Positions 5,246 through 54,963 are shown, counted from the first letter of the stretch. The stretch: 64,000 nucleotides of DNA from an uncultured Gammaproteobacteria bacterium (GCA_964522405.1 CAZFTR010000002.1:8032-72031), one strand, 5' to 3'. Numbers and translations: made by a program. Notes: generated from the sequence alone by a model not told the origin.

Positions 5246-5332
5246 TGGTTTAAATATAGTTTTCAAATCTGATTCCTTTGCTCAGATTTTCTCCTCTTTT
5301 CACCAATAGTTTTGATGAAAATAGGGGATTGG

Positions 5333-5372
5333 GCCGAGGTTCGCGGTGGATTTGACAGGTGCGAACCTCGGC
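5333..5372 (-). terminator. GC-rich hairpin downstream of the GC-island gene
   Basis: Perfect 12-bp inverted repeat GCCGAGGTTCGC/GCGAACCTCGGC with a 16-nt loop, located 37 nt after the stop at 5409 and followed on the minus strand by a T-rich tract. Confidence 0.55.
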
Positions 5373-5408
5373 ATTCGATCATGGTGGGTGTGACGAAAAG
5401 TGTGACGA

Positions 5409-8400
5409 TTACTGGTGCGTGACCCAGCCGGAGCACTGCGGGGGCGCAGTGCCGCCCGACCAGCACTGGAACTTCAGCGCCGGCTTGGAGTCGTCGCAGT
5501 CGCCGAGCTGCTTGGTCGCTCCGTCGTAGTCGGCGTCCTTGGACGAACCGGTGCACTCGGCGTTCGAGGCTTGCGTGTCGTAGAGGCACGCGAACTCCGG
5601 CGAGAGCGACGGGTCTGCTCCGACCTCGGAGGGGATCACGCAGGGCATGGCGCAGCCGTGCGTGTTGGTGTATCCCTCCGGGGTGCCGGTCGTGAGACCG
5701 ACGAGGAAGCAGTCCTTGAAGCTATCGCAGGCGTTGCCCAGGCCGTCGTTGTCGAGGTCGGTCTGGTCCGGGTTGGCCGTGAGCGGGCAGTTGTCGGAGT
5801 TGTCCAGGACGTTGTCGTTGTCGTCGTCCTGGTCCAGCTCGTCGCACTGCCCGTCCGCGTCTGCGTCCGGTTTGTCTGCGTGCTTGCAGCCCGAGTCCGG
5901 GTCGCAGGAGTCGTCCGTGCAGGGGTTCTCGTCGTCGCAGGAGACCGAAGTCCCAGCGCACGAGCTGTCCTCGCAGAAGTCCTCCGCGGTGCACTCGTTG
6001 CCGTCGTCACACGGCTCGGAGTTGCTCTCGAACACGCAGCCCGAGTCCGGGTCGCAGGAGTCGTCCGTGCAGGGGTTCTCGTCGTCGCAGGAGACCGAAG
6101 TCCCAGCGCACGAGCTGTCCTCGCAGAAGTCCTCCGCGGTGCACTCGTTGCCGTCGTCACACGGCTTGCCAGTCTCCGGGAACTCGGCGCACCAGCCATG
6201 GTCGCCGCCGTTCGGCACGCAGGTCGTGACCACGCAGGGGTTCTCGCTCACCTGGCAGTCGGCGAGCTCGAGGCAGCAGTTGTTGATCTGCTCGGAGGAG
6301 CAGATCCCGCTCTCCATGTCACAGGAGTCCTCGGTGCACGCGTCCCCATCGTCGCAGTCCAGGTCTGCTTCACAGCAGTCCGAAACTTCCTGACCCTTGC
6401 ACTCGCCGCCTGAGCACTTGTCGTTCTCGGTGCACATCACTCCGTCGTCGCAGGTCACGCTGTTCGGCGTGTTCTGGCACTTGCCCGACGAGGTGTTGCA
6501 GAAGTCGTCCGTGCAGGGGTTGGAGTCGTCGCAGGAGACCGAAGCCCCCTTGCACTCGCCACCCTGGCAGAAGTCCTCCGCGGTGCAGGAGTTGCCGTCG
6601 TCACACGGCAGCACATTTGGAACTGACAAGCAGCCCGAGTCCGAGTCGCAGAAGTCGTCCGTGCAGGGGTTGGAGTCGTCGCAGGAGACCGAAGCCCCCT
6701 TGCACTCGCCACCCTGGCAGAAGTCCTCCGCGGTGCACTCGTTGCCGTCGTCACACGGCTCGGAGTTGGGCGTGGACACGCAGCCCGAGTCCTGCTCGCA
6801 GTCGTAGTCGTAGCAGGGCTCACCATCGTCGCAGGTGAGCGGGATGCCGGACTGGCATCCGTCCTCAGCGTGACAGGTCTCAAGACCATTGCACGCATCG
6901 GCGTCATCGCACTCGACCTGGGCCCCGAGCACGCATGAGCCGCTTTGGACGTCGCAGGTCTCCACGCCGTTGCACATGTTCGAGTCGTCGCAGTCTGCGT
7001 TTTCCTCGCAGCAGTTTGGGAGTGGAACTCCCGACTGGCAACCCAGAACCGGGTTGCACTGCTCGACCCCGGTGCACTCGTTGCCGTCGTCGCAGACGAG
7101 CGGGATGCCGGGGAGGCACTTGCCGTTCTCGACGTCACAGCTCTCCGCGCCGTTGCACATGTCCGAGTCGTCGCAGTCCGCGTCCACGTCACAGCACTCG
7201 TCCACCTCGGTGAACTGGCACTGATTGTTGACGCAGCTGTCCTCGCTGCACATGTCCGAGTCGTCGCAGTCCGCGTCCACGTCGCAGCAGTTGGGGCCGG
7301 AGGCGATGAAGGTGCAGGCCATCTCGATGGTGTCACAGACATCGAGCGTGCAGGCCGAACCGTCGTCGCAGTCCGCGTGCTTGACACAGCAGTTCTCGAC
7401 CGGGATGGCGAGGCACTCGCCGCTTTCCGAGTCGCAGGAGTCAGTGGTGCACGGGTCTGCGTCGTCGCAGACGATGTCCATGCCTTCCTGGCAGCCTTTG
7501 GTGCTGTCACAGGTCTCGACTCCGTTGCAGGCGTCTCCGTCGTTGCACTTGAGCAGGATGCCGGTCTGGCACTCGCCCTCGTGGCAGGAGTCGTCCTCGG
7601 TGCACGCGTCCCCGTCGTCGCAGGAGGCCCCATTGACTGGGGTGAATTCCTCCTGGTTGACTTTCGGCTTGCAGGCCAGACAGGGGTTGCCGGGGTGGAT
7701 TTTATCGCCCTCCCAGCAGTTGGCCCCGATCAAGCACCACCCAGGCGTCGACGTGAACTCGCACTCACCGGAGCCTTCGTTGTCGCAGCTCTCGGTGGTG
7801 CAGCCCGAGCCGTCATCGCACCACTCCCGGTACTTGTTCTCGGCCGTGCCGTGGTGGATGCACTCGCCGGTTCCCATGCAGTTGTCAAGCGTGCAGGGGA
7901 TGCCGTCATCGCAGAGCGCCACCGAGTAGTCAAAGTTGTTCGTGCAGCCCGCGTCCGGGTCGCACAGCTCCACCTTGCATCCGGATGAACCGGGGCAGGT
8001 GACTGTGGAACCCAGGCATTTGCCGGCCTGGCAGGCGTCGTTTTCGGTGCAGGCGTTGCCGTCGTTGCACGGCGCCGTGTTCACCTCGTAGCTGCACCCG
8101 ACGTCCGGGTCGCACGAGTCGCTGGTGCACTGGTCACCGTCGTCGCAGTCCACGTCCTCGCCGATGCAGATCCCGTCCTCGCACATGTCGTTGACAGTGC
8201 AGGGATCGTCGTCGTTGCAGGACTTGGAATTGGGCTGGTGCTGGCACTGGCCCTCGACGCACTTGTCATCCGTGCACTCGTTGTCGTCGTTGCAGTCGTT
8301 GTCGCAGTTCGGCATGCCGGTCTCGCCCTGGGCGTCCTTGCTGTCGAACGGCTTGACCGCCACGTGCGGGGAGCACAGGTTGACGCCGGCGACGTCGCCC

Positions 8401-8507
8401 GACACCGCGTCCGCAGGGACACAGTCCTCACTGCCGACTTCACAGCCGATAAAAGTGATGGCGATGGCGATGGCGATGGCGACGATGCTCTTGTTCTCGG
8501 TCTTCAT
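5409..8507 (-). CDS. giant cysteine- and aspartate-rich repeat lipoprotein (Dictyostelium-type CTDC-like 4-Cys repeats plus C-terminal thrombospondin type-3 Ca-binding repeats), encoded by a high-GC island
   Basis: 1032 aa with an ATG start. N-terminus MKTENKSIVAIAIAIAITFIGCEV has a signal peptide and a lipobox-like IGC. About 35 tandem units fit C-x-D-x-N-x-C-T-x-D-x-C-x4-G-C-x3-P (for example SCDDSNPCTDDFCDSDSGCLSVPNV). C-terminal DADADGQCDELDQDDDNDNVLDNSDNCPLTANPDQTDLDNDGLGNACD is a classic TSP3 pattern. G+C is about two-thirds against about one-third in the flanks. Antisense ORFs here are artefacts of the GC richness. Confidence 0.8.
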   Translation of the reverse strand: MKTENKSIVAIAIAIAITFIGCEVGSEDCVPADAVSGDVAGVNLCSPHVAVKPFDSKDAQGETGMPNCDNDCNDDNECTDDKCVEGQCQHQPNSKSCNDDDPCTVNDMCEDGICIGEDVDCDDGDQCTSDSCDPDVGCSYEVNTAPCNDGNACTENDACQAGKCLGSTVTCPGSSGCKVELCDPDAGCTNNFDYSVALCDDGIPCTLDNCMGTGECIHHGTAENKYREWCDDGSGCTTESCDNEGSGECEFTSTPGWCLIGANCWEGDKIHPGNPCLACKPKVNQEEFTPVNGASCDDGDACTEDDSCHEGECQTGILLKCNDGDACNGVETCDSTKGCQEGMDIVCDDADPCTTDSCDSESGECLAIPVENCCVKHADCDDGSACTLDVCDTIEMACTFIASGPNCCDVDADCDDSDMCSEDSCVNNQCQFTEVDECCDVDADCDDSDMCNGAESCDVENGKCLPGIPLVCDDGNECTGVEQCNPVLGCQSGVPLPNCCEENADCDDSNMCNGVETCDVQSGSCVLGAQVECDDADACNGLETCHAEDGCQSGIPLTCDDGEPCYDYDCEQDSGCVSTPNSEPCDDGNECTAEDFCQGGECKGASVSCDDSNPCTDDFCDSDSGCLSVPNVLPCDDGNSCTAEDFCQGGECKGASVSCDDSNPCTDDFCNTSSGKCQNTPNSVTCDDGVMCTENDKCSGGECKGQEVSDCCEADLDCDDGDACTEDSCDMESGICSSEQINNCCLELADCQVSENPCVVTTCVPNGGDHGWCAEFPETGKPCDDGNECTAEDFCEDSSCAGTSVSCDDENPCTDDSCDPDSGCVFESNSEPCDDGNECTAEDFCEDSSCAGTSVSCDDENPCTDDSCDPDSGCKHADKPDADADGQCDELDQDDDNDNVLDNSDNCPLTANPDQTDLDNDGLGNACDSFKDCFLVGLTTGTPEGYTNTHGCAMPCVIPSEVGADPSLSPEFACLYDTQASNAECTGSSKDADYDGATKQLGDCDDSKPALKFQCWSGGTAPPQCSGWVTHQ
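5886..6166. repeat. perfect tandem duplication (131 identical bp, period 150 bp) inside the Cys-rich gene
   Basis: 5886-6016 is identical to 6036-6166 when read directly. This duplicates a 50-aa double CTDC unit (SEPCDDGNECTAEDFCEDSSCAGTSVSCDDENPCTDDSCDPDSGC). Confidence 0.85.
6498..6738. repeat. second perfect tandem duplication (~91 bp identical, period 150 bp) inside the Cys-rich gene
   Basis: About 6498-6588 is identical to 6648-6738. The protein repeats CDDGNSCTAEDFCQGGECKGASVSCDDSNPCTDDFC twice. Confidence 0.8.
8457..8480. repeat. (GATGGC)4 hexanucleotide microsatellite in the signal-peptide coding region
   Basis: gatggcgatggcgatggcgatggc encodes the AIAIAIAI stretch of the signal peptide. 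The in-frame 6-bp unit could vary in copy number. Confidence 0.7.
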
Positions 8508-8848
8508 TTGGTCTTAGTCCTCGGAAATAGGGTAGTCGGCCAGGCCGCGTTTTTGGTAGCGACCAGATTCTTGGAATCAGAAATCGAAATCGGAAACTTG
8601 GTCTTGGGATTTTCGTCAATTAGTTTCAGGCAAATGAATATCTGCCCTCCGTATTAGAGAAACAAGAAATTGCAGATCTAATACGAAGAACAGAAAATTA
8701 CCTAAAATCCACCATGATATTGTAAAGAACTAAGAACTTACCCATAATTATTATGAGTAAATTCTATTAGAACTATACCTCAAAACTTGAGATTTAGAAC
8801 AGGCAAGTATAGCATGTTTTAGTGCTTTTGTCAAGCTAAATATGCAAA

Positions 8849-8878
8849 AAATTCGCTAAAATAAGCGAATTTTTGTCT
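8849..8878. terminator. bidirectional rho-independent terminator
   Basis: A6, then stem ATTCGC with loop TAAAATAA and stem GCGAAT, then T5. Lies downstream of the minus-strand gene 8955-10778. Confidence 0.6.
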
Positions 8879-8954
8879 TTGCTCAGCTAAGCAAAAACTA
8901 CTAGGCTGTCCCTAAAATTTTGCTAAATTAAGCCAATTTTTGGTCTGTGGATAT

Positions 8955-10778
8955 CTACTCTGTAGTTGTACCTTTTTCTTGGGCTTTTTGGTCTGTTTTT
9001 AAGCTGGAATCTACATTTTCAACTGAATCAACCAATAAATATCCAGTAAAGCCGTCCATAGCACTTATAGTCACATTTTCCAGTAAGTCTACAATACTGC
9101 CTTTTTGGTCAATTGTTGGAGTAAATCCAAGTTCCATATATAAGCCAATATTTTGTTCAGGAGTAATTGATTTTATGTTCCATCTGATTTGATTATTTAC
9201 TTGGTCATATATTAGATTGTCTCCATGACTAACACTGGTTTTTCCTGAAAATTGAATGTATTCTGGTAAGTCTGCTTTGAAATTTAAGCTGTTAAGATGA
9301 TTAGTAGTGTTTTTTATATCTATCATCAGCCAATATTTTGTTTGTTTTCCGGTTTGGGGCGGTAATGGGCCTCTGCCTAATTGATCACCTTCGTTGGTGT
9401 AGTATCTAGCTTCAGCTAATATTTGAAGATTTGAAGATATTTTAATTTGATCTGTGGTGGATTTGATTTCTAAAATTTGATCATCAAGAGATTCAAGTTT
9501 GGATGAAATGATTGGATTCAGTACTAATTTGGGATTTACTATGTTTGATATTTTTTCTCTTATTGGAATTATGATGTTTATGGTTTTTGATTCTCCAGGT
9601 TTTAACTGTTGTAATTTGGCATTTTCAGTATTGGTTAATTTTATATTCTGAGTTGAATTGATTATCTCTCGGTTCTCTGCACTCAAGGGAATGTTAATAT
9701 TAAGATTTTCAAATGGTATATTTCCTTGATTTTTTAGAGTAATTTCAAGATTTGCAAATTTACCAGGGTTAGCAACCTGATTTTTCCAGGTAGAAATTAT
9801 CTGAAGTTGAGGGTCTAATACCTCTAAGTTTTTTTGATTTTTTGTCTGCGAAAATCGATGATTGTTTATTGATATGATTGGTATAAATTCTAGTGATATT
9901 GAGTTTTCTGTGTCTTGAAGGTCTGCTGAAAGTTGAGTATTTAAATAAGCTGAATTGCCCGGCTTTAATTCATCTAAAAACCAAGAGTTGTTCAATATAT
10001 ATCCTTGGTTTGGTTTAAGATTAGTGATTTCTATTCCTTTTTGCTGCTTTAGTGGAATTTCTATGTTTTTGAGGATGTGTTTATTGTTATTTTTTATTAC
10101 CAGGTCTAATTTTGTCAGACCACCATTTACTATTTTTTGATTTATATCAATATGTGTTTCCAGTACTGAGTTTCTGGGAATGGTTATCAAGCTGGTGGTT
10201 TTAATCCCACTTGTTTGATTTTGGTTATAGGTGTAGGTTAGTTTTGCTGATGTCTTGTAATGTTTATTTGGTTCTCCATAAAATATTCCAGAGACACTTA
10301 AATCTGCTTTTTCTCCCGGCTTGATAGTGTTGAGATTAAAACTGTTTTTTGTCTGGTCATAACTCTCTTTCGGTATGGCCGAATCAAAAACAAATCCATC
10401 TGGAAATTGTAGAATTAAGTGAGCATTTTCAAGTTCAAAGTTCTCATTGTTAATGTAGCTTATTTGGTATTCTATTTCTTCACCACTTAGAATTTTTGAT
10501 TTGGGCTGGATCTCACTTGAAAATTGAGAGATGTTTAGATCTACTAGGTAGTTGCCTCTTGGTTTGTAGCTGTGCCAATAAATGGTTGAAACAAATAAAA
10601 GAATGGTTAAAAGAAGAAGAAAAATGTCAAAAACAAATAGTTTCTTTGCATGAGCATATTTGAGATCATATTTTTTTTGGTAGTATCTATGGGCAAATTT
10701 TATTGGATCTGATAAAAGCTTAAAAAACCACTTTGGTGGCGCAGTTAAAATTTTATTCTTTTCTTTACAATCTTTCAT
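8955..10778 (-). CDS. membrane-anchored extracellular repeat protein (Ig-like/CARDB-DUF11-like beta-sandwich repeats), hypothetical
   Basis: 607 aa. One N-terminal TM (LFVFDIFLLLLTILLFVSTIYW) followed by a long beta-rich domain with recurring N/T/I-rich ~100-aa segments. No catalytic motif recognised. Confidence 0.55.
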   Translation of the reverse strand: MKDCKEKNKILTAPPKWFFKLLSDPIKFAHRYYQKKYDLKYAHAKKLFVFDIFLLLLTILLFVSTIYWHSYKPRGNYLVDLNISQFSSEIQPKSKILSGEEIEYQISYINNENFELENAHLILQFPDGFVFDSAIPKESYDQTKNSFNLNTIKPGEKADLSVSGIFYGEPNKHYKTSAKLTYTYNQNQTSGIKTTSLITIPRNSVLETHIDINQKIVNGGLTKLDLVIKNNNKHILKNIEIPLKQQKGIEITNLKPNQGYILNNSWFLDELKPGNSAYLNTQLSADLQDTENSISLEFIPIISINNHRFSQTKNQKNLEVLDPQLQIISTWKNQVANPGKFANLEITLKNQGNIPFENLNINIPLSAENREIINSTQNIKLTNTENAKLQQLKPGESKTINIIIPIREKISNIVNPKLVLNPIISSKLESLDDQILEIKSTTDQIKISSNLQILAEARYYTNEGDQLGRGPLPPQTGKQTKYWLMIDIKNTTNHLNSLNFKADLPEYIQFSGKTSVSHGDNLIYDQVNNQIRWNIKSITPEQNIGLYMELGFTPTIDQKGSIVDLLENVTISAMDGFTGYLLVDSVENVDSSLKTDQKAQEKGTTTE

Positions 10779-10818
10779 GTTTTAATTATATTCTTTTTTA
10801 GTTTTTCGAGCAATAAAA

Positions 10819-10838: not shown

Positions 10839-10842
10839 TGGT

Positions 10843-15490: not shown

Positions 15491-18400
15491 ATGAACGATA
15501 TGAAAAAGTTTGGAAAGAAACTTTTTACAGGTGTTGTAACAGGTTTGACTGCTTTTAGCATGTCTTTTGGTGCATTTTTGCCAGCAGTAGTTCATGCTGC
15601 TGAGGAATGTCCTAGCGTGCAAGCAGGCGACTTGATCAAAACAACAGAGAAATCTGATGTTTATTACATCGACGCCAACATGAAAAGAATGCCTTTCCTA
15701 AACTCAGAAGTTTTCCTTTCTCATTATGAGGATTGGACTGGTGTGATGGCAATTCCACCTAGTTGTATTTCTAGTTTCTTGCCATCAACCGGAGTTGTAT
15801 ACAGACCTGGATCTCGTCTTTTTAAGACTGAAGTAGATGCAGCTGTATACGCAGTTCTACCTGGAAACAAAGCTTATCATTTAGCTGATCCAGATGTAGC
15901 TACTGCACTTTACGGTGCTGATTGGGAAAAATCATTACGTACTGTAAGTGACTCATTCACTTTGGCTCTAAATTTTGACGCATCTCAAAAACTTGACATG
16001 TCTGTACCTCACGCAGGTCAGTTGGTTAAGACAGAAGGTGATGATGTTTATTATGTTTCAGCTGAAGGAAAACTACAAAAAGTTGAAGGTGACCTAGCTG
16101 CTGGTTTAGCAGCTGATGTTGAGACTGTTTCACAAACTGTATTTGATGCAGCTGAAATGGATGACGCTGCGAATACTGTGACTGCAAGTTCTCTACTAGG
16201 TAACCCAGATACTGTAACAACTACATCAGGTGATACTGATGCTGGTGATACAGATGGTGATACTGATACTCCAGCAGCAGCTGGTACTCTAACAGTAACA
16301 CTTGCAGGAAACACTCCAGCTCCTGGATACGTAGCAAAGGGTGCATACAATGCAGAATTTGCTAAATTTGTATTCAAGGCAACTGGTGGTGATGTTCGTG
16401 TTGACAAGATTGTTATTAAACGTGATGGTCTTGGTGTTGACGCTGATATTGATGCTGTGCGCCTATATGACGGTGCTATGCAACTTGGTTCAGACCAAGC
16501 ACTTAACACTAACACTCATCTTGCTACTTTCAAGAACCTAAATTGGGATCTTTCAAGTGGTGATGAAAAAACTCTTACTGTAAAAGCTGATACTAACTCA
16601 AGTCCATCAGGTACAAATGATTATTTTGAAATCTCTGAACTTGAATTAGAAGGTGAGGGATCTCTTACAGCAGATCTTCCTCTAGCTGGTAATGCTTTGC
16701 AATACCACAGTGTTACAATGGGTGTACTTGACGTTAATGATCTAACTTCTCCAGGAGCAACTACTGTTATTTCTGGTGCTACTGATGTGCAAGTTCAATG
16801 TTTGAACTTTGATACAAACAGTGCAGAAGGATTTGATGTTAAATCTATTAAGTTGACAAACAATGGTACTATTGGAAACAGTCAAATTAACAAATTTGTA
16901 CTGAAACAAGGTGCTGATGTGTTGGCAACTGTAGATGGCGGATTTGAATCAGATGGTACAGTTACTTTTGACATGAATGATTCTCCTTACTATATTGCTA
17001 AGAGCAAGAGTAAAGATCTATGTGTTTATGTTGATATTGCTGAAGGAATCAGCTTAACTACCAGAACAATTATCATGAATCTTGCTGAGGCAAAAGACGT
17101 GGTAGCTGTTGGTGATAGCTCAAAAGGACAAGTAGTTATTACTATTGATGATGCAACACCTTTCACAGAGCAAACTGGTCAAACAATGACTGTTGACCAG
17201 GGTACTCTAACAGTTGCTTTCAACACTGCTACTGCTCCTGTTGCAGCCGACCTAGTTGATGGTGTGGCTGGAAACAAACTTGGAGCATTCAAATTCACTG
17301 CTGGATCTACTGAAGGTATGAAAGTTACCAGATTTAGACTTACAGCTAGTGGTACTGGTGTTGCTGCTGCTGATCTTTCTAACTTCGAATTATTTGTCTA
17401 CGACCCTGATACATCTGAAGAGACACAAGTTGGAAGTTCTCAAAGTATGAGTGGTTTGAATGTTACATTTGAAGACACAGTAGATGGTCTATTTGACGTA
17501 GCTGCTGGTAAAAATGTAATTGTTCATCTATACGGTGATGTTAACACAGCTGCTACTTGGACAGGAAGTACAACAGTTGCTGGTATGAATTTGTATGTTG
17601 GTGGTACAAATACTAATTTGATTGTAAAGGCTAAAGGTCTTAAATCAGAAAAGTTTGTAGCTGCTGGTGACATTACACTTTCAAGCGTTAACCAGAATGA
17701 TACTGGAGTAGTACAGTTTGGTAATTCAGACAATGGTGCTCTTGTTATCTCTCTAGATAACTCAGCTCCAGGTGCTACATCTATCTCAACTGGTGTTACT
17801 GACTATGATTTTGCTCACTACAGACTTTATGCTACTGGTGAGGATGTCAATGTAACTCAGCTTGTTGTTCGTGCTTATAACACTTCTGGAACAGGAAGTA
17901 CAGCTAGTACAACAGGTGATATCACAAACGTAAAACTTTATGATATTACTGATGCTGATAATCCAGTTCAAGTTGGTACTACAGTTGCTAGTCCAGCTCT
18001 TGGTGTTTCAACATTTAGCTTTACTATGACTGTTCCAAAAGACAGTTACAAAGTTCTAAAAGCTGTTGCTGATATCCCAACTGGAAGTGGATCTGACTTT
18101 ATGCACTTAGACGTTCCTGGTGCTGGAACTGTTGCTGATGATATTTCTTCTACCGGAGCTTATTCTGGTATTGACATCACAGAAACTGGTTCTGCTACTG
18201 GTCGTCTTATGACTGTTGCTACACCAACTATCACAGTAAGTTGGGCATCTGGTGCTACAAATAATGTAGTAACTAACGCCAACGGTGTTACTCTTGGTGC
18301 ACTTCAGTTGACTGCTGGTCAATATGAAAACGTTAAAGTAACAAGTATTAAGATTGAGGCTTCTAGTTCTACTGTTGCTTCTGGCAATTTTGCTGAAGGT

Positions 18401-32913: not shown

Positions 32914-32915
32914 AT

Positions 32916-33848: not shown

Positions 33849-33852
33849 TCTT

Positions 33853-35896: not shown

Positions 35897-35899
35897 TTT

Positions 35900-40283: not shown

Positions 40284-40345
40284 ATTTTTTTATTTAATTA
40301 CTCGCTTATTTTAGCAAAAAAAAACAAGCTCGGCAATGCTTGTTG

Positions 40346-40380
40346 GCCGCCTGCCTGACTGGAATCGTCAGGCAGGCGGC
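40346..40380 (-). terminator. GC-rich terminator hairpin following the GC-rich NUDIX gene
   Basis: Perfect 14-bp stem GCCGCCTGCCTGAC with loop TGGAATC and GTCAGGCAGGCGGC. On the minus strand it is followed by a second small hairpin CAAGC-attgccga-GCTTG and T9. Confidence 0.7.
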
Positions 40381-40411
40381 TCATGCTGCTGCGTTACTTG
40401 CTCTCGACATC

Positions 40412-40897: not shown

Positions 40898-40980
40898 TTG
40901 TTGACTCCTTGAGCTGCTGGATTTTAGACTAGCATAATTGTATAAAAAAATCAAGCCTACAGCCTGATTTTGTTTAGATT

Positions 40981-41484: not shown

Positions 41485-42557
41485 CAATTATTACTATTAA
41501 AAAATAAATCAATTTGTTTCTTTGTGGTATTTTTTATATTTTCATCTTCATAAAAATCTCTATACCAGTCCATGGTTAGTCGGAGAGTTTCTTCCAAGTT
41601 CAGTTTTGGAGACCAGGCAAGTTTTTCTTTTGCCTTTCCAATATCAAGTCTTAGTATTCCTGCTTCATGTCTTTTTTTATCCGGAATAATTTTGTAAGAG
41701 CCTTTTTGAGAAGTGCTTATTGCTTTTTTTACCAGTTCTTCCACGCTACAACTTTCTTGATCTTCCGGGCCAAAATTCCAAGCTCCTACAATTTCTTTTT
41801 CCCCTTGAAAAAGCTTTTTAGCTAAAATCATGTATCCGTTTAGTGGTTCGAGAACATGTTGCCAGGGGCGAATAGCATTTGGATTTCTTATTATTATTTC
41901 TTGATCATCCTCATAAATAGCTTTGATAATATCAGGAATCAATCTATATTCTCCCCAGTCTCCGCCACCAATCACATTTCCAGATCTGGCTATGGCTATA
42001 AGTGCCTCGTGACCTGCATCAGGTTTTTCAGGGTTGAAAAATGATTGAATATAAGATTGGGTAGTTATGTCTGCCGCTGCCTTGCTGGCACTATAGGGAT
42101 CATAACCTCCAAGAGCATCTTCTTCCTTGTAAGCGATTTCTTGTTCCAGATTTGCATAAACTTTGTCTGTGGTAATGATAACAGCAGATTTTACAGTTTT
42201 TGAATTGCGCAAGGCTTCCAGTAAATTGGCTGTGCCGATTACATTGCTTGAGTAAGTTTCTAGTGGATTTTCATAGCTTGGTCTGACAAGTGCTTGAGCT
42301 GCCAGATGAAAAACTATTTCTGGTTGATGTTCTTGAATTAAGTCATTTAGTTTTTCAAAATTTCGAATATCAACAATAGAGTGTTTAATTTTCTTTTCTA
42401 AATCTAAAGCTTCGAACATGCTATGCTTGCCGGTCATTGGTAGAGAGATGCCAACTACATCTGCACCCCAATTTGTCAAAGTATAACTAAGCCAGGATCC
42501 CTGAAATCCGGTATGGCCGGTAATTAATATTTTTTTATCTTTGAAAAAATCTTTCAT
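41484..42557 (-). CDS. rfbG: CDP-glucose 4,6-dehydratase
   Basis: ILITGHTGFQGSWLS, IVFHLAAQALVRPSYENPLETYSSNV, GGYDPYSASKAAAD, SGNVIGGGDW and IIRNPNAIRPWQHVLEPLNGY are collinear with Salmonella RfbG/DdhB. Confidence 0.95.
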   Translation of the reverse strand: MKDFFKDKKILITGHTGFQGSWLSYTLTNWGADVVGISLPMTGKHSMFEALDLEKKIKHSIVDIRNFEKLNDLIQEHQPEIVFHLAAQALVRPSYENPLETYSSNVIGTANLLEALRNSKTVKSAVIITTDKVYANLEQEIAYKEEDALGGYDPYSASKAAADITTQSYIQSFFNPEKPDAGHEALIAIARSGNVIGGGDWGEYRLIPDIIKAIYEDDQEIIIRNPNAIRPWQHVLEPLNGYMILAKKLFQGEKEIVGAWNFGPEDQESCSVEELVKKAISTSQKGSYKIIPDKKRHEAGILRLDIGKAKEKLAWSPKLNLEETLRLTMDWYRDFYEDENIKNTTKKQIDLFFNSNN

Positions 42558-42560
42558 ATT

Positions 42561-43466
42561 CTATTCTAGGATTTTCTGCAATCCATCATCAAGTGATGTT
42601 TTTGCTTTCCAGTTGGTCTTTGTATTATTTTTTATATCAGCTACTGAATTCATGATTTCATTTTCTCGATAGGGGAGAGCGCCCCAGTTTAAATTTGATT
42701 TACTTTTGATTTCTCTTTTTAAAACCTCAACCACTTTTTTTATTGATTTTGAATGTCCACTTCCAATTTCAAATTGTCCAAAGTTTTCTAGACTGTCAAT
42801 ATTTTTTATGACGCTGGCAAAAGCTTGGGCAACATCATCAACATATATAAAATCTCTTTTTTGCTCACCAGGAGTTAGATCAATTGATTTGCCTGCTCTA
42901 AGTTTTTTAATTATAAATGGAATAAATTTATGATCATGATCATCTGGCCCATACATCTGGAATATGACCAGGTTTATCAGTTTAGTCTTACTGTCCTTGG
43001 TAACTTTTTTGGCATTTTCCAGAAATTCTTTTTTTGATTTTACATATGCAGATTCGTTTCCAGTAAATTTTATTTTTTCATTGAAAAAAGTATCAGCATT
43101 TATAAAGGCTTTTAAACCATTTTTAATTCCAAGTCCAAGTAAGTTTTTTGGTAGATCATAATTTACATGGTAAATGTCTTGGTCTGCTTCCTTGTTTCTG
43201 CCATAGCAAGTTGCTGTATGAATTATAAAATCAATATTTTCTTTTTGAAAAATTTCTGCCAAAGATCCATCTTCTATATCTATAAATTCCGGTTTGTTTT
43301 GCAAAACAAATTTATTTATTTTAGCAAGCTTTGAATTTTTACGCTTTAGGATAATTAATTTATATTGATCATCTTCCAAAAATAATTTTACAATCCTACT
43401 ACCTAAAAAACCAGTACCTCCGGTGATGAGTACTGTTTTTTTGCTATTTACTCCCATATTTTCCAT
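42561..43466 (-). CDS. NAD(P)-dependent SDR epimerase/reductase, CDP-abequose/paratose synthase-like
   Basis: VLITGGTGFLGSRIVKLF Rossmann motif and YVKSKKEF (YxxxK). Similar in size and position to RfbJ/RfbS in ddh clusters. Confidence 0.7.
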   Translation of the reverse strand: MENMGVNSKKTVLITGGTGFLGSRIVKLFLEDDQYKLIILKRKNSKLAKINKFVLQNKPEFIDIEDGSLAEIFQKENIDFIIHTATCYGRNKEADQDIYHVNYDLPKNLLGLGIKNGLKAFINADTFFNEKIKFTGNESAYVKSKKEFLENAKKVTKDSKTKLINLVIFQMYGPDDHDHKFIPFIIKKLRAGKSIDLTPGEQKRDFIYVDDVAQAFASVIKNIDSLENFGQFEIGSGHSKSIKKVVEVLKREIKSKSNLNWGALPYRENEIMNSVADIKNNTKTNWKAKTSLDDGLQKILE

Positions 43467-48007: not shown

Positions 48008-48013
48008 TATTCT

Positions 48014-49288: not shown

Positions 49289-49291
49289 AAT

Positions 49292-49900: not shown

Positions 49901-49969
49901 TTTATGATTGATATAAGACCTGCTTTTTTGTAATTTAAAAATTAATCTACTAGTTACTAAATAAATTCT

Positions 49970-50617
49970 ATGTCTCAATTTTCGAAAATAGATCTAAATG
50001 GTACAAAAGGAATTTTGCTTGATTTTGATAATGCACTTTATAAATATGATCCATGCCATCAACATGCTCTCGATTCAGTGTATTTTGAAATCAAAAAACA
50101 TCTAGATGTCGAGTCTTTTGAGCAATTTTTGGATTTTTATAAAAAAGCACAAAAAAAGGTTAAGGCAAATATACCTGACAGAGCTGCTTCACATTCAAGG
50201 TTGCTTTATTTTCAAATTTTGTTTGAAGACTATTTTGGACATGTGAAAGTTGGTTTAAACTTACAGTTTGAAAAACTTTATTGGAATTCATTTTTTGAAA
50301 AAATGGTTCTGGCAGATGATGTGTTAGATTTTCTTGAAAAGTGTAAAAAAGAGAGCATTAGAATATGTGTTGTGACTGACCTGACTGCGCAAATTCAGTT
50401 TAAGAAATTTTTACATTTGGGTCTGGAAAAGTATTTTGATTTTGTAGTTAGTTCAGAAGAAGCAGGAATGGAAAAACCTGGTGAGGGAATTTTCTTGCTT
50501 GCATTACAGAAGCTGGGAATGAGCAAAGACGATGTTTTGGTAATAGGGGACAGTAAAAAAAGGGATATAGCAGGCGCAGAAAATCTTGGCATAAGAAGCC
50601 ACTTAATAGAATTATGA
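49970..50617 (+). CDS. HAD-superfamily hydrolase/phosphatase
   Basis: Motif I ILLDFDNALY (DxD), motif II VVTDLT, motif IV GDSKKRDIAGA. Confidence 0.8.
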   Translation: MSQFSKIDLNGTKGILLDFDNALYKYDPCHQHALDSVYFEIKKHLDVESFEQFLDFYKKAQKKVKANIPDRAASHSRLLYFQILFEDYFGHVKVGLNLQFEKLYWNSFFEKMVLADDVLDFLEKCKKESIRICVVTDLTAQIQFKKFLHLGLEKYFDFVVSSEEAGMEKPGEGIFLLALQKLGMSKDDVLVIGDSKKRDIAGAENLGIRSHLIEL

Positions 50618-52761
50618 TAAAGGGTTTTTCAAAAAAATACCTGCATGACAAAACCGGAAAATTTAAACTGGACATTCTGAAATCCCGTATTTTTCTTTCA
50701 GTTCTTGGTTTGAAGATAGTATCTTCTTTTTTATTTGCTTCAAATTACTTAACAGAATTGTTTGCTCGCTTTGTAAACTACTTTGTGGTCAGTGGATTTC
50801 AAAATCCATACCAGTTTTTCTACAATCTGGATATTTTAAATGTTTTTCCATATCCACAAGTAATGCTTTGGATATTAGCCATACCTAGATTTTTATTTAG
50901 TCCATTTCTCAGTGCAAATTATCTTGATGTTAGCTTTTTGGATTTATTTGTTTATAGAATTCCAGTCTTATTAGCTGATACAGTTATTTTGGTGGTCTTG
51001 GCTCGCTGGCTCAAAAACAAGCAAGATAAATTATTAAAATATTATTGGTGTTCACCGATTTTATTTTATATAAGTTATATTCATGGGCAGCTCGACGCTC
51101 TTCCAATAATGTTATTATTTTTATCGCTCTATCTTTTATTCAAAGAGAGGTTTTATTGGTCAGTTGCTTTGCTCGGTTTGGCAATTTCTGCTAAAACAGG
51201 TTTGCTAATTGTATATCCTTTTGTGTTGGTCTATTTCTTGCTACAAAAAATAAGAATTAGAGAAATAATTGCACTAGCTTTAGTGCCAGTTTTGGTTTTT
51301 TTAATCTTTAATATTAATTATCTATTTACTCCTGCTTTTATTGAATTAGTTTTAAATACCAAAGAGCAATTTAAAATTTTTGATTTTAAATATCAAATTG
51401 GCGGAGATTTTGTGATTTATTTTGTACCACTTGCTTATTTTGTATTGTTTGTTAAAAGTTTGACTTATCGGGTATTTAACAAGGATGTTTTTTTGATGTT
51501 TTTAGGATTTAGTTTTGGTATTTTGACTTTGTTTATTCCGCCGATGCAGGGTTGGTATTTTTGGATAATTCCTTTTTTTATTTATTTTTATATAAAAGAA
51601 GAAAATGCTCCAAAGTTTACTTTTATTCTTTTGAATTTATTTTATTTCTTGTATTTTCTAGTTGTCAAAAATTCAGATTATTTGCAGGTTTTTCAGTTGA
51701 TTTTGCCAAGTCTGGCAGCCAAGCAAAATCTCTATCATTATCTAAGTGGATTAGGGATAAATGCTCAAGTTTTGGTGAATACCATTTTTACTCTATTGCA
51801 AGCAACTTTGCTTTTAAATATTCTCTGGATTTATAAAAAAGGAATTGAATCAAATACTAATTACAAAATTAAATACCAGCCATACTTGATCGGCATAGCA
51901 GGGGACTCAGGAAGTGGAAAAAGTATTTTGTCTGATTTGATGATAAATAAATTTGGCCATAAAAATACTTTACTTCTTGAGGGTGATGATATGCATAAGT
52001 GGGAGCGTGGAGATAGAAATTGGCAGGAGTTTACTCATCTTGATCCAAGAGCAAACAAATTGCATGATGATCTGCAAAGCGCTTTGAAGCTAAAAAAAGG
52101 AGATAAAATTAAGAGAAGTATTTATGATCATAGTACTGGAAAATTCAGACTTCCTAAAAAAATTGAATCTAAAAAAATAATTCTTTTCCAGGGTTTGCAT
52201 TCATTGTATTTAGAAAAAATGAGAAATCTTTATGATCTGAAAGTCTTTTTAAAACCAAGTGAAGATCTGCGATTGCATTGGAAAATAGTTAGAGATACCA
52301 AAGATAGAAATTCAGAACGTCAAAAAGTTGAACAACAGATCAAAGATAGAGAATCAGATGCCAAGAGGTATATTCAAAAGCAGCAAGAACATGCAGATAT
52401 TGTAGTTTCTTTTGAAAATAAAAAAGAAATTACTAATCTGGGAGATAAAAAGGAAGATATTAGTTTAGCTTTGAAAGTTAAATTTGAAAATGGCATTGAT
52501 ATAGATCCTTTACTTCATGAGCTCGACAAGTTGGGTTCAATAAAATACCAACATCTACATCAAACAGACAGTCAATATCTGGAATTTCACGGAAAAATTA
52601 GCAAAGAAAAAATAGATAAAATTGCTTATGGTCTGATGCCAGATCTGTGGGATATTTTAAATATTGAGCCAGATTGGAGCAGTGACCTCAATGGAATTTT
52701 GCAGTTATTCATTTCTTATTATATTTTTTATAAAATGAAAATTGATGAGTATGCAGGATGA
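50614..52761 (+). CDS. fusion protein: N-terminal polytopic membrane domain (DUF2029/GT-C-like) plus C-terminal PRK/uridine-kinase-family P-loop kinase domain
   Basis: About 430 aa with at least 10 TMs, then IGIAGDSGSGKSILSDLMINKFGH...LLLEGDDMHKW...IYDHSTGKF...IILFQGLHSLY, a phosphoribulokinase/uridine kinase family (Walker A GxxGSGKS) domain. Confidence 0.65.
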   Translation: MIKGFSKKYLHDKTGKFKLDILKSRIFLSVLGLKIVSSFLFASNYLTELFARFVNYFVVSGFQNPYQFFYNLDILNVFPYPQVMLWILAIPRFLFSPFLSANYLDVSFLDLFVYRIPVLLADTVILVVLARWLKNKQDKLLKYYWCSPILFYISYIHGQLDALPIMLLFLSLYLLFKERFYWSVALLGLAISAKTGLLIVYPFVLVYFLLQKIRIREIIALALVPVLVFLIFNINYLFTPAFIELVLNTKEQFKIFDFKYQIGGDFVIYFVPLAYFVLFVKSLTYRVFNKDVFLMFLGFSFGILTLFIPPMQGWYFWIIPFFIYFYIKEENAPKFTFILLNLFYFLYFLVVKNSDYLQVFQLILPSLAAKQNLYHYLSGLGINAQVLVNTIFTLLQATLLLNILWIYKKGIESNTNYKIKYQPYLIGIAGDSGSGKSILSDLMINKFGHKNTLLLEGDDMHKWERGDRNWQEFTHLDPRANKLHDDLQSALKLKKGDKIKRSIYDHSTGKFRLPKKIESKKIILFQGLHSLYLEKMRNLYDLKVFLKPSEDLRLHWKIVRDTKDRNSERQKVEQQIKDRESDAKRYIQKQQEHADIVVSFENKKEITNLGDKKEDISLALKVKFENGIDIDPLLHELDKLGSIKYQHLHQTDSQYLEFHGKISKEKIDKIAYGLMPDLWDILNIEPDWSSDLNGILQLFISYYIFYKMKIDEYAG

Positions 52762-53782
52762 GTTGTTAAAAGAATTAGTGGAAATTTCTCATATTATTGG
52801 TCAAAAGTCTGATTTTGTTCAAGGTGGTGGGGGAAATACTTCTGTGAAAATCGATGAAAATACCATGGCCATCAAAGCTTCTGGTTTTAATTTGTCTGAC
52901 ATTAGAGAAGATGATGGTGTTGTTTTGGTTGAACATCAGAAAATCAAAAGTTATTATCGAGAAAATTCAAACAGTCTAACTGAAGATCAGGCAATTTCTT
53001 TTAACAGATCAACTGTTTTAAAATCAGATTTATCTGAAGATTTACGACCTTCAATTGAAACAGGTTTTCACGCTTTGCTGGATAAGTTTGTTATTCATTC
53101 TCATTCAGTTTATGTAAATATAGTATCTTGCGCAGAAGGCGGAGAAGGTATTATGCATAAGATTTTCAAAGATTCAGATCTAAATATACTTTGGCTAGAT
53201 TACTTTAGCCCGGGTTTATATCTAACTCTCGGCATGAGTCAACTTTTGGGTAATTATCATAAATCAGAATTTCCAGATGCAGTATTTATGAAAAATCATG
53301 GATTAGTTGTAAATGCAAAAACTTCTCAAAAAGCAGTAGAAATTCATCAAGAGATAAATAGTACAATAAAAAAATATTTTAGCTTAGATAAAAATTATCC
53401 ACAAATTGAAATCAAACAGCTCAATGAAAACCTATATCAAAGTAATTCAGAATATCTACTGAATTTCTTAAGACAAAATCCAGATAAAATTAAAAATTTT
53501 CCAAAACAGATTTTATTTCCTGATCAGGTTGTTTTTGGTGATGATATTAGTTTTCAGGGTTTACAGGAAAATAAGATAAACTTTGACTTAGAAGAAAACC
53601 AGGTTTTTTATAAGGCTAGTAAAAAACAAGCCAAGACAATTGAAGAATTACTAATTGCTTGGATTTTCATAATTGAGAATATTGAAAATCAGGGATTGCA
53701 ATTAGAAATTTTAAATAATGAACAAGTAGAATATATTAGGCAGATGAGTAGTGAAAAATATCGCAAAAAATTAATAAAATAA
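52742..53782 (+). CDS. class II aldolase/adducin-fold protein (extended, 346 aa)
   Basis: HIIGQKSDFVQGGGGNTSVKIDENTMAIKASG resembles the GGNxS substrate-phosphate loop of class II aldolases/epimerases. The C-terminal ~130 aa is unassigned. Confidence 0.5.
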   Translation: MMSMQDELLKELVEISHIIGQKSDFVQGGGGNTSVKIDENTMAIKASGFNLSDIREDDGVVLVEHQKIKSYYRENSNSLTEDQAISFNRSTVLKSDLSEDLRPSIETGFHALLDKFVIHSHSVYVNIVSCAEGGEGIMHKIFKDSDLNILWLDYFSPGLYLTLGMSQLLGNYHKSEFPDAVFMKNHGLVVNAKTSQKAVEIHQEINSTIKKYFSLDKNYPQIEIKQLNENLYQSNSEYLLNFLRQNPDKIKNFPKQILFPDQVVFGDDISFQGLQENKINFDLEENQVFYKASKKQAKTIEELLIAWIFIIENIENQGLQLEILNNEQVEYIRQMSSEKYRKKLIK

Positions 53783-53847
53783 AAATATCTTGAGTAGAGA
53801 TATTTTTTTTAAAATTCATTTAAAATTTAGCACATAGGCAGGGGGTC

Positions 53848-53860
53848 GTGTCACTCTCCT
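53848..53860. repeat. left 13-bp inverted repeat GTGTCACTCTCCT bracketing GC-island 3
   Basis: Perfect reverse complement of 54951-54963 (AGGAGAGTGACAC). An imperfect extension to about 22 bp shares CCCC. Confidence 0.8.
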
Positions 53861-53877
53861 CGATCCCCCTTGGTAGC

Positions 53878-53920
53878 TGCCCGCTATGCGGGCCTTCTGG
53901 TTGTGGCTGGCCGCTGCCAG
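53878..53920 (-). terminator. two GC-rich hairpins downstream of GC-island 3 gene
   Basis: GCCCGC-TAT-GCGGGC (53878-53892) and GGCTGGC-CGCT-GCCAGCC (53903-53920), immediately after the stop at 53922. Confidence 0.5.
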
Positions 53921-53921
53921 C

Positions 53922-54926
53922 CTAGTAGTCCTTGGTGAGGAGCGAGCCGGCGCCGTAGGACTGGTCGAAGGCGTTGGCTGCTCGGGTCAGCATCGTTACC
54001 ATCGAAGTCCGGCGCGCCACCACCCAGCCCTGACGGTGATGCATGTCCTTGAGCTCCGCGTTGGCGGCGTTCCCGACGAGCGGTCGGCCGTAGATGTTGC
54101 GCGGCCTGGTCATGTGGCCGCTCTGGGAGAAGGGGCCGATAGGGTCGGTGTCCCAGGTCTTCCAGTCGGGCTGGCGGTTGAAGATGGCGTTGATCCAGTC
54201 GAGCTCGGCGAAGGCCGGCAGGTCTTCCGGGTTCTCCGGCTCGAAGACGCTGCGCAGGAACTGCAGGATCTGGGTGCCGGCACCTCCCACCGGAACCTGA
54301 ATGACCTCGACGCCCTTCTGAAGCAGGAAGGCAGGGAACTCGATGTCTCCGTAGTTCTGCGGGTAGGAGCGCCGGATGCCGATCCGCGGGACAGAGGTGG
54401 TGTCGACTTCGGTCCGCTTGAGCTTGACCTCGACCCAGTTGCCCGCCTGGTCGGCTTTCCCGATCTTGCACTCGCCGCCCATGATGATGGCGGCGTACTC
54501 GCCGAGCACGTCGAAGATCAGGCCGACCCTGGACATGAAGTTTCGGGAGAGCTCCGTGCGCTCGAGCAGGCTGACCAGAGTGGTCGGGCCAATCAGCGCG
54601 TCGGTGCCCGCGGTCTTCACAGCGTCGCCGGTCCCGTCACAGGGATCGACCTGGAAGGCCTTGAGGGCGAAGGGCCGCAGCCCCGAGTCCGCTTCCTCGG
54701 AGAACGAGGCCGGATGCAGGGCCGAGAGCCCACCGAACTCGCCGTTGCCGTTGAGGATGAAGCTCGAGGCCGAGAGATCCATGTTGGTCACCACTTCGCC
54801 GAGGTCGGCGCCGTGGTCGATGACCTGGATACCCTTCTTGCCGAGAGCCGGCTTGATGGCGGCTCGTGTCGCCGTCACGACCAGGGGAAAGACCACCTGG
54901 GTCATGACATCGAAAAGATTCTTCAA
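53922..54926 (-). CDS. hypothetical enzyme of unidentified family, encoded by high-GC island (possible metal-dependent sugar-phosphate enzyme; DPxDGT-like motif)
   Basis: 334 aa. The ORF-track start is TTG at 54926, preceded by AGAGGA SD, with an alternative ATG at 54905. Roughly two-thirds G+C. Contains FQVDPCDGTGDAV and IIMGGECKIGKA, but no confident family match. The antisense 348-aa ORF (53886-54932 +) is a GC artefact. Confidence 0.6.
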   Translation of the reverse strand: MKNLFDVMTQVVFPLVVTATRAAIKPALGKKGIQVIDHGADLGEVVTNMDLSASSFILNGNGEFGGLSALHPASFSEEADSGLRPFALKAFQVDPCDGTGDAVKTAGTDALIGPTTLVSLLERTELSRNFMSRVGLIFDVLGEYAAIIMGGECKIGKADQAGNWVEVKLKRTEVDTTSVPRIGIRRSYPQNYGDIEFPAFLLQKGVEVIQVPVGGAGTQILQFLRSVFEPENPEDLPAFAELDWINAIFNRQPDWKTWDTDPIGPFSQSGHMTRPRNIYGRPLVGNAANAELKDMHHRQGWVVARRTSMVTMLTRAANAFDQSYGAGSLLTKDY

Positions 54927-54950
54927 TTCTGATCCTCTTTGAGGGGTTTT

Positions 54951-54963
54951 AGGAGAGTGACAC
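54951..54963. repeat. right 13-bp inverted repeat AGGAGAGTGACAC bracketing GC-island 3
   Basis: Reverse complement of 53848-53860. Lies about 25 nt upstream of the TTG start. Confidence 0.8.

Follow-up and report, generated by a model that had tools for sequence, protein, structure and literature searches.

The window analysed here (the whole stretch of 64,000 nt, CAZFTR010000002.1:8032-72031 of assembly GCA_964522405.1, deposited as an uncultured Gammaproteobacteria bacterium) has a mean G+C content of around 33% and contains three blocks of strongly elevated G+C content, in the following termed islands 1, 2 and 3. A preliminary description, based on reading the sequence alone, had reported three GC-rich islands with a single gene on the minus strand each; a 500-nt composition profile and a two-change-point likelihood fit, from which the block edges were taken, agree with it in number and position, and the gene calls agree with it in strand. 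The islands and their genes are:

Island 1, 5324-8549, minus strand: 3,226 nt with 64.5% G+C, consisting of a short 5' leader, one gene and an 85-nt GC-rich 3' tail (change-point fit and profile)
Island 1 gene, 5409-8507, minus strand: lipoprotein-like precursor of 1032 aa (MKTENKSIVAIAIAIAITFIGC...)
Island 2, 40328-40920, minus strand: 593 nt with 57.3% G+C, taking in the Shine-Dalgarno sequence AAGGAG and an 84-nt 3' tail
Island 2 gene, 40412-40897, minus strand: NUDIX-family protein of 161 aa with a degenerate Nudix box
Island 3, 53837-54963, minus strand: the change-point block (53837-54903) has 65.7% G+C
Island 3 gene, 53922-54926, minus strand: predicted phosphatase of 334 aa, of the superfamily of inositol monophosphatase (IMPase) and fructose-1,6-bisphosphatase (FBPase), with a TTG start and the ribosome-binding site (RBS) AGAGGA

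[quoted passage not shown] According to Pfam, it encodes glycosyltransferases of the families GT1, GT2 and GT4, two Wzy-type ligases, a flippase, a DegT aminotransferase and several epimerases/dehydratases, furthermore nucleotidyltransferases, methyltransferases, an extracytoplasmic function (ECF) sigma factor, a GHL15/FG-GAP protein and a DUF11 protein. The order ECF sigma ... DUF11 - X - GT4 - GHL15 - GT4 is collinear with a metagenome-assembled genome (MAG) of Ca. Magasanikbacteria (identities of the orthologs 59% for GT4, 38% for DUF11 and 43% for GHL15), and the operon around island 3 has its genes in the order also found in two other MAGs, one of a 'Patescibacteria group bacterium' and one of Parcubacteria.

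Composition and junctions of the islands

The flanks of the islands have 29-34% G+C. In island 3, a stretch of mixed composition, which comprises the first seven codons, the RBS and the 5' leader up to an inverted-repeat arm, continues beyond the change point at 54903. Each block holds one credible gene, the remaining open reading frames (ORFs) being overlapping alternative-frame or antisense ORFs, as is typical for GC-rich DNA. The per-gene comparison of codon usage proposed in the preliminary description clearly separates these genes from all others: The G+C content at third codon positions (GC3) is 0.894, 0.642 and 0.887 in the genes of islands 1, 2 and 3, respectively, compared to 0.246 +/- 0.032 (range 0.17-0.31) in 46 native genes, a distance of 12-20 standard deviations. 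Exactly three GC3 outliers, the island genes, exist in the window, every other gene being native, and the relative synonymous codon usage (RSCU) of the island genes correlates negatively with that of the native genes (-0.30 to -0.68). At least two donor compositions stand behind the three islands, as had been supposed before: Islands 1 and 3 are alike (GC3 0.89; RSCU r=0.77), and island 2 stands apart (GC3 0.64; r=0.42-0.53).

Codon-level translational selection as the source of the high GC3 is ruled out. The untranslated tails within the change points are GC-rich too, such that the high G+C content is not an effect at the codon level, and codons ending in A or T are almost absent. A mild rise in G+C content (0.40-0.46) at 14-20 kb and 29-31 kb, with native GC3 (0.20-0.29), is due to the amino-acid composition of two large secreted proteins (15491-20002 and 28866-31655; 1503 and 929 aa), which possess signal peptides, are rich in Thr, Ser, Gly and Ala, and have no Pfam match. 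The three island genes, by contrast with this native background, are compositionally foreign and sharply bounded, and a foreign origin is the best explanation.

Composition jumps as abrupt and extreme as these might also result from a chimeric assembly, from binning contamination by GC-rich organisms, or from an engineered construct; chimerism and engineering had both been considered in the preliminary description. By exact-protein look-up, the genes of islands 2 and 3 were recovered on four contigs (L001-L004; loci and contigs retrieved for comparison carry L numbers) of the runs SRR8146440 and SRR8146441, assembled separately (Logan assemblies). These four contigs, which correspond to 32876-41473, 37725-43272, 53686-55712 and 53483-55470 of the window, are 100% identical to it over their full length and cover both junctions of both islands (four junctions). 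Concerning island 1, look-ups with the exact proteins of the island, GT4, DUF11 and GHL15 returned no record, and its junctions are without an independent contig; moreover, its gene contains an exact repeat of 281 nt, at which short-read unitigs would break. The support for island 1 is comparative: Several metagenome contigs, and a Ca. Magasanikbacteria MAG in a contig of 687 kb, also show the order DUF11 - high-GC Cys-rich gene - GT4. Furthermore, the islands lie within single contigs amid collinear native genes, islands 1 and 3 are equipped with native-type promoters, the same architecture is found in dozens of unrelated metagenome assemblies, and the cargo does not consist of cloning or marker genes. 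Since the junctions of islands 2 and 3 are identical among assemblies and the arrangement of island 1 recurs in unrelated ones, chimerism and engineering are set aside, the latter being contradicted also by the same pattern in many environmental metagenomes; an artefact of any of these kinds is regarded as extremely improbable.

The island genes and the sites they occupy

Island 1 is situated in a variable slot between two native genes. The features of the gene and of the slot are:

Tandem repeat in the island 1 gene, 5886-6166, minus strand: two in-frame copies of 150 bp, 100% identical
Second repeat array in the island 1 gene, 6498-6835, minus strand: copies 85-91% identical
3' hairpin of island 1, 5333-5372, minus strand: 12-bp GC-rich stem after the stop codon; the GC-rich block ends 9 nt further on, at a T-rich stretch
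Promoter of island 1, 8806-8834, minus strand: native-type, TTGACA-N14-TGCTATACT, around 300 nt upstream of island 1
DUF11/CARDB-type envelope protein, native, 8955-10778, minus strand: upstream flank of the slot, 38% identity to the Magasanikbacteria ortholog
GT4 glycosyltransferase, native, 4028-5206, minus strand: downstream flank of the slot, own promoter at 5217-5245, 59% identity to the L020 ortholog

The product of island 1 contains 14% Cys and 16% Asp, Asp repeats similar to thrombospondin type 3 (TSP3) repeats, and a distinct C-terminal domain of around 130 aa. Seven or more Dicty_CTDC repeats (PF00526; 120 bits over seven stretches) are present, and the N-terminus, read by eye, appears to be a signal with the lipobox TFIG-C. 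With its C-x-D-x-N/D-x-C-T-x-D-x-C modules and its secretion signal, the protein exhibits the characters of the Dicty_CTDC/Myxococcus-type family, and it is probably an adhesin or a matrix protein. The complete identity of the two 150-bp copies implies a very recent duplication or gene conversion. As many as 4921 homologs are detectable, the best of them with identities of 34-40%; the named ones belong mainly to MAGs of GC-rich Deltaproteobacteria, Myxococcales and Binatia, with two CPR entries. The contig L019 (GCA_016234725.1, labelled Ca. Azambacteria) contains four Dicty_CTDC genes, and its G+C content of 57% is very unevenly distributed (0.35-0.70). It bears on the question of the donor and may derive from a GC-rich CPR, be a mosaic or have been mis-binned.

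A metagenome scan with the flanking GT4 gene yielded 63 related loci, 21 of which show DUF11 followed by GT4. The slot between them is empty in ten loci, filled by a high-GC gene in seven (the window, L020, L031, L034, L042, L051 and L071) and filled by other content in four. Empty slots measure 126-259 nt and contain nothing except a terminator hairpin and the GT4 promoter. In four of the seven loci the occupant is a CTDC lipoprotein gene running in the direction of the flanks; in the other three it is a gene for an unrelated high-GC lipoprotein of 308 aa that runs the opposite way. On the GT4 tree, which is poorly resolved, the occupied slots are patchily distributed, as expected of a horizontally acquired islet. 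The promoter of island 1 and the first bases of its leader resemble the promoter that drives GT4 at the empty sites of related loci, and this suggests that island 1 was inserted into the GT4 leader and that a second promoter now serves GT4.

Island 3 lies within a conserved operon, for which the following features and identities were found:

Conserved operon, 49970-59908, plus strand: HAD, PRK-like kinase, class II aldolase, IMPase-like slot, two nucleotidyltransferases, methyltransferase, membrane protein and GT2
3' hairpins of island 3, 53839-53921, minus strand: three short, GC-rich hairpins after the stop codon
Promoter of island 3, 54982-55010, minus strand: native-type, TTGACA-N14-TGCTTATAT, diverging from the promoter TTGCAT-17-TATAAT, which belongs to the operon gene downstream
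PRK: 56% identity to L005 (28% G+C), 47% to L011 (53% G+C)
Aldolase: 35% identity to L005, 28% to L011
NTP3: 58% identity to L005, 44% to L011
Island 3 protein: 39% identity to L005, 48% to L011

The island 3 protein belongs to a family with only about ten relatives in a collection of 5.8 billion sequences. The motifs SFSEE-DS, DPxDGTGD (DPCDGTGD in island 3 itself) and WDTDP are invariant across the aligned family, and Pfam PF00459 (Inositol_P) is reached weakly by five of the ten members, not by the island 3 protein. Its AlphaFold model (predicted local distance difference test 85.4, predicted template modelling score 0.89) retrieves structures of inositol monophosphatase, SuhB, CysQ and fructose-1,6-bisphosphatase in Foldseek with a probability of 1.0, and both the motifs (EE...D, DPxDGT, WD) and the alpha-beta-alpha-beta-alpha fold of the FIG superfamily are found. 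The product is accordingly assigned to the IMPase/FBPase superfamily, as a phosphatase of sugar or polyol phosphates.

The operon presumably constitutes a pathway for an activated sugar or polyol phosphate. It also exists in L005, L011, L012, L016 and L018, i.e., in CPR, DPANN-labelled and other MAGs, the kinase being a 715-aa PRK-family fusion and the methyltransferase TylF-like. In L005, L011, L012 and L018 the operon is collinear (the order aldolase - X - NTP3 - NTP in L005, L011 and L018), and the phosphatase gene there is co-oriented with its neighbours and often overlaps them. In the window, the gene occupies the same position in inverted orientation, between a native bidirectional terminator and a divergent promoter pair. 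A second homolog was not noticed among the window's ORFs of at least 100 aa, no dedicated tblastn search with island 3 having been made. Whereas the flanking proteins are closer to L005, the island 3 protein is closer to the GC-richer L011 and groups with the higher-GC clade in a distance tree, a likeness which shared GC-driven amino-acid usage could inflate. Phylogenetic incongruence of this kind is found for island 3; in island 1 the repeats obscure the phylogeny, and island 2 has its closest kin in the native gene beside it. On this comparison, island 3 is a xenologous displacement in situ, and not the insertion of a new function.

The first seven codons and the RBS of island 3 (54903-54926) are AT-rich, the remainder of the gene having 66% G+C; with few codons to judge by, the conserved N-terminus may contain the 5' recombination junction. 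An IMPase-like gene is a GC-rich outlier also in a Saccharibacteria MAG contig of 40% G+C (L015 5968-7032; 55% G+C, GC3 0.62). Separate GC-rich genes nearby (L012 4028-4807 and L015 87-788) encode proteins with an H-x-T-V-G-R motif. These cases suggest that GC-rich single-gene outliers reach beyond the Magasanikbacteria-like clade.

Island 2 is accompanied by a native gene of the same family, and the following features adjoin it:

Native NUDIX paralog, 40981-41484, minus strand: 167 aa, low G+C, GC3 0.27, immediately upstream of island 2
3' hairpin of island 2, 40346-40380, minus strand: perfect 14-bp GC stem, after which come a hairpin of AT type and a T9 run (40323-40344)
Promoter-like element of island 2, 40926-40954, minus strand: AT-rich, TTGATT-N14-TGC-TAGTCT, of native geometry, weaker and below the threshold of the consensus scan (by sequence reading)

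The island 2 protein reaches Pfam PF00293 just above the threshold (24.3 bits, cutoff 21.1). Compared with the canonical Nudix box GX5EX7REUXEEXGU, its box appears shifted and without two glutamates (RLGQAE), and that of the native neighbour is degenerate too (RVLKNE); the NUDIX activity of the island 2 protein may therefore be atypical. Both NUDIX genes are situated between an epimerase/dehydratase gene and a DegT aminotransferase gene, for which reason both proteins probably act on nucleotide-sugar. Island 2 protein and neighbour share 39% identity (E 1e-37). An exhaustive HMMER search of 1.84 billion representatives yielded 256 relatives of the island 2 protein, the best of them being this neighbour, and a word-indexed search returned only the protein itself; 122 of the 145 family members compared are closer to the native NUDIX protein than to that of island 2. 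GC3 (0.64) and GC1, the G+C content at first codon positions (0.67), weakly indicate, from 161 codons, either a donor of around 57% G+C or partial amelioration from a richer one, and the relationships suggest a related, GC-richer Patescibacteria lineage as donor. The tandem pair was also considered as ancestral A/B paralogs; this was rejected, as both proteins match the same domain of two-domain homologs, with no A/B split. Several NUDIX relatives (P0014, P0015, P0016, P0023 and P0049) are two-domain fusions of 374-413 aa, and paired NUDIX modules may be a recurrent functional arrangement which the tandem pair of the window matches.

Signals, repeats and recurrence in related loci

The strong GC-rich hairpin terminators reported to follow each island are borne out by folding (-39.2, -52.2 and -41.9 kcal/mol for islands 1, 2 and 3; z-scores -6.3, -7.0 and -2.9). 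The native promoter geometry TTGACA-N14-TGnTAnnnT has nine matches in the window, compared to 2.35 expected, the intergenic ones being upstream of GT4, island 1, the DUF11 operon, a GT2 gene and island 3. The preliminary statement that islands 2 and 3 are joined to native AT-rich upstream signals thus holds for island 3 and can be extended to island 1, whereas the element of island 2 is weaker and sub-threshold.

A recurrent motif (TTTTGCTAAAWTAAGC) had been noticed next to two of the islands. It is present (GCTWAAWTWAGC at 8855, 8922 and 40304; four strand-matches compared to 0.17 expected), but it is not a feature of the islands. The motif is the loop-and-stem core of a native hairpin, which consists of an A-run, a GC stem of 3-5 bp, the 8-nt loop TWAAWTAA, the second arm and a T-run, and which is found also between DUF11 and GT4 at the empty sites and in the GT4 leaders of related loci, with differing stems and the loop kept. 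It adjoins the islands because these sit in intergenic regions. The hairpin looks like a bidirectional terminator or a leader element of the lineage; many related loci have it behind genes as well as in 5' leaders, where it lies closely upstream of the start codon. Whole hairpins extend over 8847-8874, 8912-8945 and 40300-40320, and occur also in the DUF11-GT4 intergenic regions of L021-L048. At gathering thresholds, the Rfam search gave no match, the hairpin motif included. The positions of the motif and of the inverted repeats are:

Native hairpin motif GCTAAAATAAGC, 8855-8866: situated within AAAAATTCGC-TAAAATAA-GCGAATTTTT, with further copies at 8922-8933 and 40304-40315
Inverted repeat of island 3, 53848-53868 and 54943-54963: 21 nt, 18 of 21 complementary, 13 perfect (p ~0.01 compared to shuffles)
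Inverted repeat of island 2, 40384-40399 and 40862-40877: from the 3' tail to the 5' coding end, 16 nt, 15 of 16 complementary (p ~0.01)

The repeat of island 3, which had been pointed out before, exists, and both island 2 and island 3 have a 3' untranslated tail with complementarity to the 5' end of the transcript to which it belongs. Inverted repeats that join the 5' and 3' ends of two islands, together with the size of a transcription unit in all three, the common strand and the GC-rich 3' tails of 84-85 nt, would fit a single delivery system, be it integron-like cassettes, a transposon or a miniature inverted-repeat transposable element (MITE) with terminal inverted repeats, or a phage; a shared cassette mechanism had been among the earlier proposals. 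Terminal inverted repeats as a shared mechanism were rejected, however: A significant one is absent in 12 of 15 islands scored against shuffles, only islands 2 and 3 of the window are nominally significant, and the repeat sequences are unrelated between islands. Equal tails as a fixed cassette element were rejected as well, since 18 other islands have tails of anywhere between -27 and 256 nt, such that the agreement is a coincidence; the tails of the window islands end at a terminator hairpin and a T-run. Integron attC sites do not account for the hairpins, which have perfect GC stems without AAC...GTT cores; reading of the tails revealed no attC-like R''/R' cores, and the window contains no integrase. 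Neither transposases nor tRNAs were found in the window, nor the target-site duplications and shared terminal inverted repeats that mark a transposon or MITE. Phage delivery was dismissed, as a search of 2.9 million viral contigs revealed no relative of either island 1 or island 3. Given in addition that the islands are dispersed and not arrayed, placement of all three by one delivery system is considered very unlikely.

Three such acquisitions had been called unusual for a lineage with small genomes. The related CPR loci do not bear this out: A scan of the fetched low-GC loci revealed 26 further segments at least 0.15 above background, around 20 of which contain a clear gene with a GC3 of 0.6-0.96, mostly as single genes. 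Their cargo consists mostly of lipoproteins with Cys/Asp-rich or TSP3-type repeats, with few enzymes. A second slot, beside a gene family of ~500 aa located 6-10 kb beyond GT4, harbours a high-GC lipoprotein gene on the minus strand in at least eight loci. The occupants of this second slot are 5-10 times less alike (normalised scores 0.015-0.16) than the flanking GHL15 and GT4 (0.28-0.71), which would indicate turnover by replacement rather than clean vertical descent. A test for co-divergence of the second-slot occupants with their flanks had no power, as the distances of GHL15 and GT4 are themselves uncorrelated (star-like phylogeny). Across genomes the islands exhibit one codon signature (C3 >> G3, CTC preferred over CTG, GGC far above GGG), which is unlike that of the 72%-GC genomes of the same scan (CTG over CTC) and resembles the native usage of the CPR relative L046 with 53% G+C.

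Origin of the islands and comparison with known systems

The evidence is best accommodated, and we hold this with moderate confidence, by a plastic envelope locus in which genes were repeatedly acquired horizontally or replaced by xenologs, single foreign GC-rich transcription units arriving in at least two events from donors of differing composition. Of the three precise and recent insertions originally postulated, the foreign nature and the sharp boundaries remain; the notion of insertion has to be modified, as island 1 is the occupant of a slot, island 2 a homolog of its neighbour and island 3 an inverted replacement in situ. Under repeated acquisition, island 2 would be a xenolog or a very divergent copy of the adjoining NUDIX gene in the nucleotide-sugar cluster. 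All islands have in common that the GC-rich block starts no more than a few tens of bases from the start codon and ends at a hairpin with a T-rich stretch after it.

CPR bacteria carry competence and type IV pilus systems and are transformable. Foreign DNA might be taken up via this machinery, and illegitimate recombination might place it in a locus tolerant of change; it would be retained when landing behind a usable promoter, be pared to the transcription unit by the strong deletion bias of reduced genomes, and be favoured by selection for surface variation or host interaction. Codon signature and nearest relatives suggest GC-richer Patescibacteria as donors, as likely as Myxococcota-like bacteria; a Myxococcota-like donor is possible for island 1.

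Several observations weigh against repeated acquisition. The best relatives reach only 34-40% (island 1), 39% (island 2) and 48% identity (island 3), with no donor found. Signs of mobility are lacking: integrase or transposase Pfam domains among the ORFs of at least 100 aa and tRNAs in the window, target-site duplications or direct repeats at the island junctions, and general terminal repeats across the islands. The junctions of island 1, as mentioned, are not covered by an independent contig. In island 3, GC3 (0.89) is higher than in any sampled member of the GC-richer clade (0.71-0.74), and GCC, GTC and ACC are chosen where the clade members use GCG, GTG and CCG, such that the true donor must be sought outside the sampled members.

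Further points on this side speak at the same time for a different explanation, namely that the islands are long-term residents whose high G+C content (GC3 0.8-0.95) is actively kept, over long evolutionary times, at fixed slots in genomes of 33-48% G+C; the class of genes concerned would comprise mainly Cys/Asp-rich surface lipoproteins, with some enzymes of glycan pathways. This might happen if the resident GC-rich copy served as a homologous landing pad and were overwritten by GC-rich homologs from hosts or neighbours, or if GC-biased conversion or repair acted locally, limited to whole transcription units. The same two slots are high in G+C in many related loci although the native proteins are just 35-60% identical, which is hard to fit with recent, unameliorated arrival unless turnover is high, and the GC3 of the islands (0.8-0.96) does not depend on the background of the host (0.34-0.48), contrary to simple recency. 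The private C-terminal domain of island 1, common only to the slot gene of L031, shows 32% identity between the two, close to the 37% of the flanking DUF11. The kinship of island 2 with its neighbour fits an in-situ or old tandem duplication as well; the codon signature common to the islands and the identical repeats of island 1, as a sign of ongoing intragenic recombination, point in the same direction. Against permanent residence, the slot occupants are heterogeneous in family, length and orientation, many sites are empty, and island 3 groups with GC-richer lineages and is inverted relative to the conserved operon. Near-identical external homologs of island 1, to be expected under overwriting, were not found among the 4921 detected, and we know of no bacterial mechanism for such sharp, gene-sized shifts in G+C content. 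Active maintenance is therefore seen as unlikely.

CPR/Patescibacteria are ultra-small, mostly uncultured episymbionts, the hosts and attachment factors of which are largely obscure. Recurring GC-rich genes for surface lipoproteins and glycan enzymes mark sites of cell-surface renewal and may point to donors; if the donors are the hosts, the islands give a sequence-based handle on host identity. Should maintenance by overwriting be true, it would provide a built-in route to host mimicry or antigenic variation. With genes of GC3 0.6-0.96 in the same slots of backgrounds of 0.2-0.5, the islands offer a natural test of amelioration theory, and they are a warning that high-GC segments in low-GC MAGs should not be stripped as contamination.

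A direct precedent for high-GC islands in CPR was not found in the literature searched. As phenomena, both horizontal acquisition and xenologous displacement are known from variable envelope loci; moderately surprising are the direction from GC-rich into AT-rich DNA, the granularity of single genes, a cargo of lipoproteins and the fact that the pattern recurs in a CPR clade. CPR with 58.5% G+C and large, strain-variable Cys-rich extracellular proteins, for which a role in attachment has been proposed, exist (PMC4736985). Equally to the proteins of Ca. Peribacter riflensis, the island 1 product is large, secreted and very Cys-rich and resembles the cysteine-rich repeats of Myxococcus; in the Peribacteria (58.5% G+C), however, such genes are not reported as compositional islands (PMC4736985), whereas here genes of 63-70% G+C lie in genomes of 33-48%. 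Horizontal gene transfer is common in Patescibacteria and mostly intra-phylum, most transfers coming from other Patescibacteria (PMC12455944). Taken together, these published findings would fit GC-richer CPR as donors. The frequent transfer and the genomic islands of groundwater Patescibacteria agree with the nearest relatives of islands 2 and 3, but that study does not report a conserved envelope locus with slots in which single high-GC genes recur, or with Cys-rich lipoproteins as cargo (PMC12455944).

With integron cassettes the islands share the single ORF, the short 5' leader and the structured 3' element of ~85 nt. They differ by the lack of an integrase, of attI/attC cores and of an array, by being spread over 50 kb, and by two units having their own promoters. 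In the amelioration framework of Lawrence and Ochman, atypical composition marks acquired genomic islets. The abrupt deviation of G+C content and GC3 in discrete segments, the patchiness among relatives and the location in an accessory surface-structure region correspond to such islets. Unlike these, GC-rich DNA has here entered an AT-rich reduced genome, as a single gene trimmed to the transcription unit and without tRNA, integrase or direct repeats; high-GC genes in the same slot of many diverged relatives are not predicted by simple recent arrival followed by decay.

Xenologous gene displacement in situ within conserved operons, leading to mosaic operons, is a known concept. Island 3 conforms to it in standing at the operon position of its ortholog and in being nearer to a GC-richer lineage than the flanking genes are. 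Unlike in typical displacement, it is inverted, possesses its own promoter and terminators and splits the operon, and flanking homology cannot explain the integration. Finally, variable loci for surface polysaccharides of the O-antigen or capsule type are hot spots of horizontal gene transfer, and equally to them the whole window is devoted to glycan and envelope biosynthesis, with content varying between relatives. In the classical cases, whole blocks of genes of lower G+C content are swapped between conserved flanks, whereas the islands described here are isolated single genes of much higher G+C content in otherwise conserved operons of native composition.

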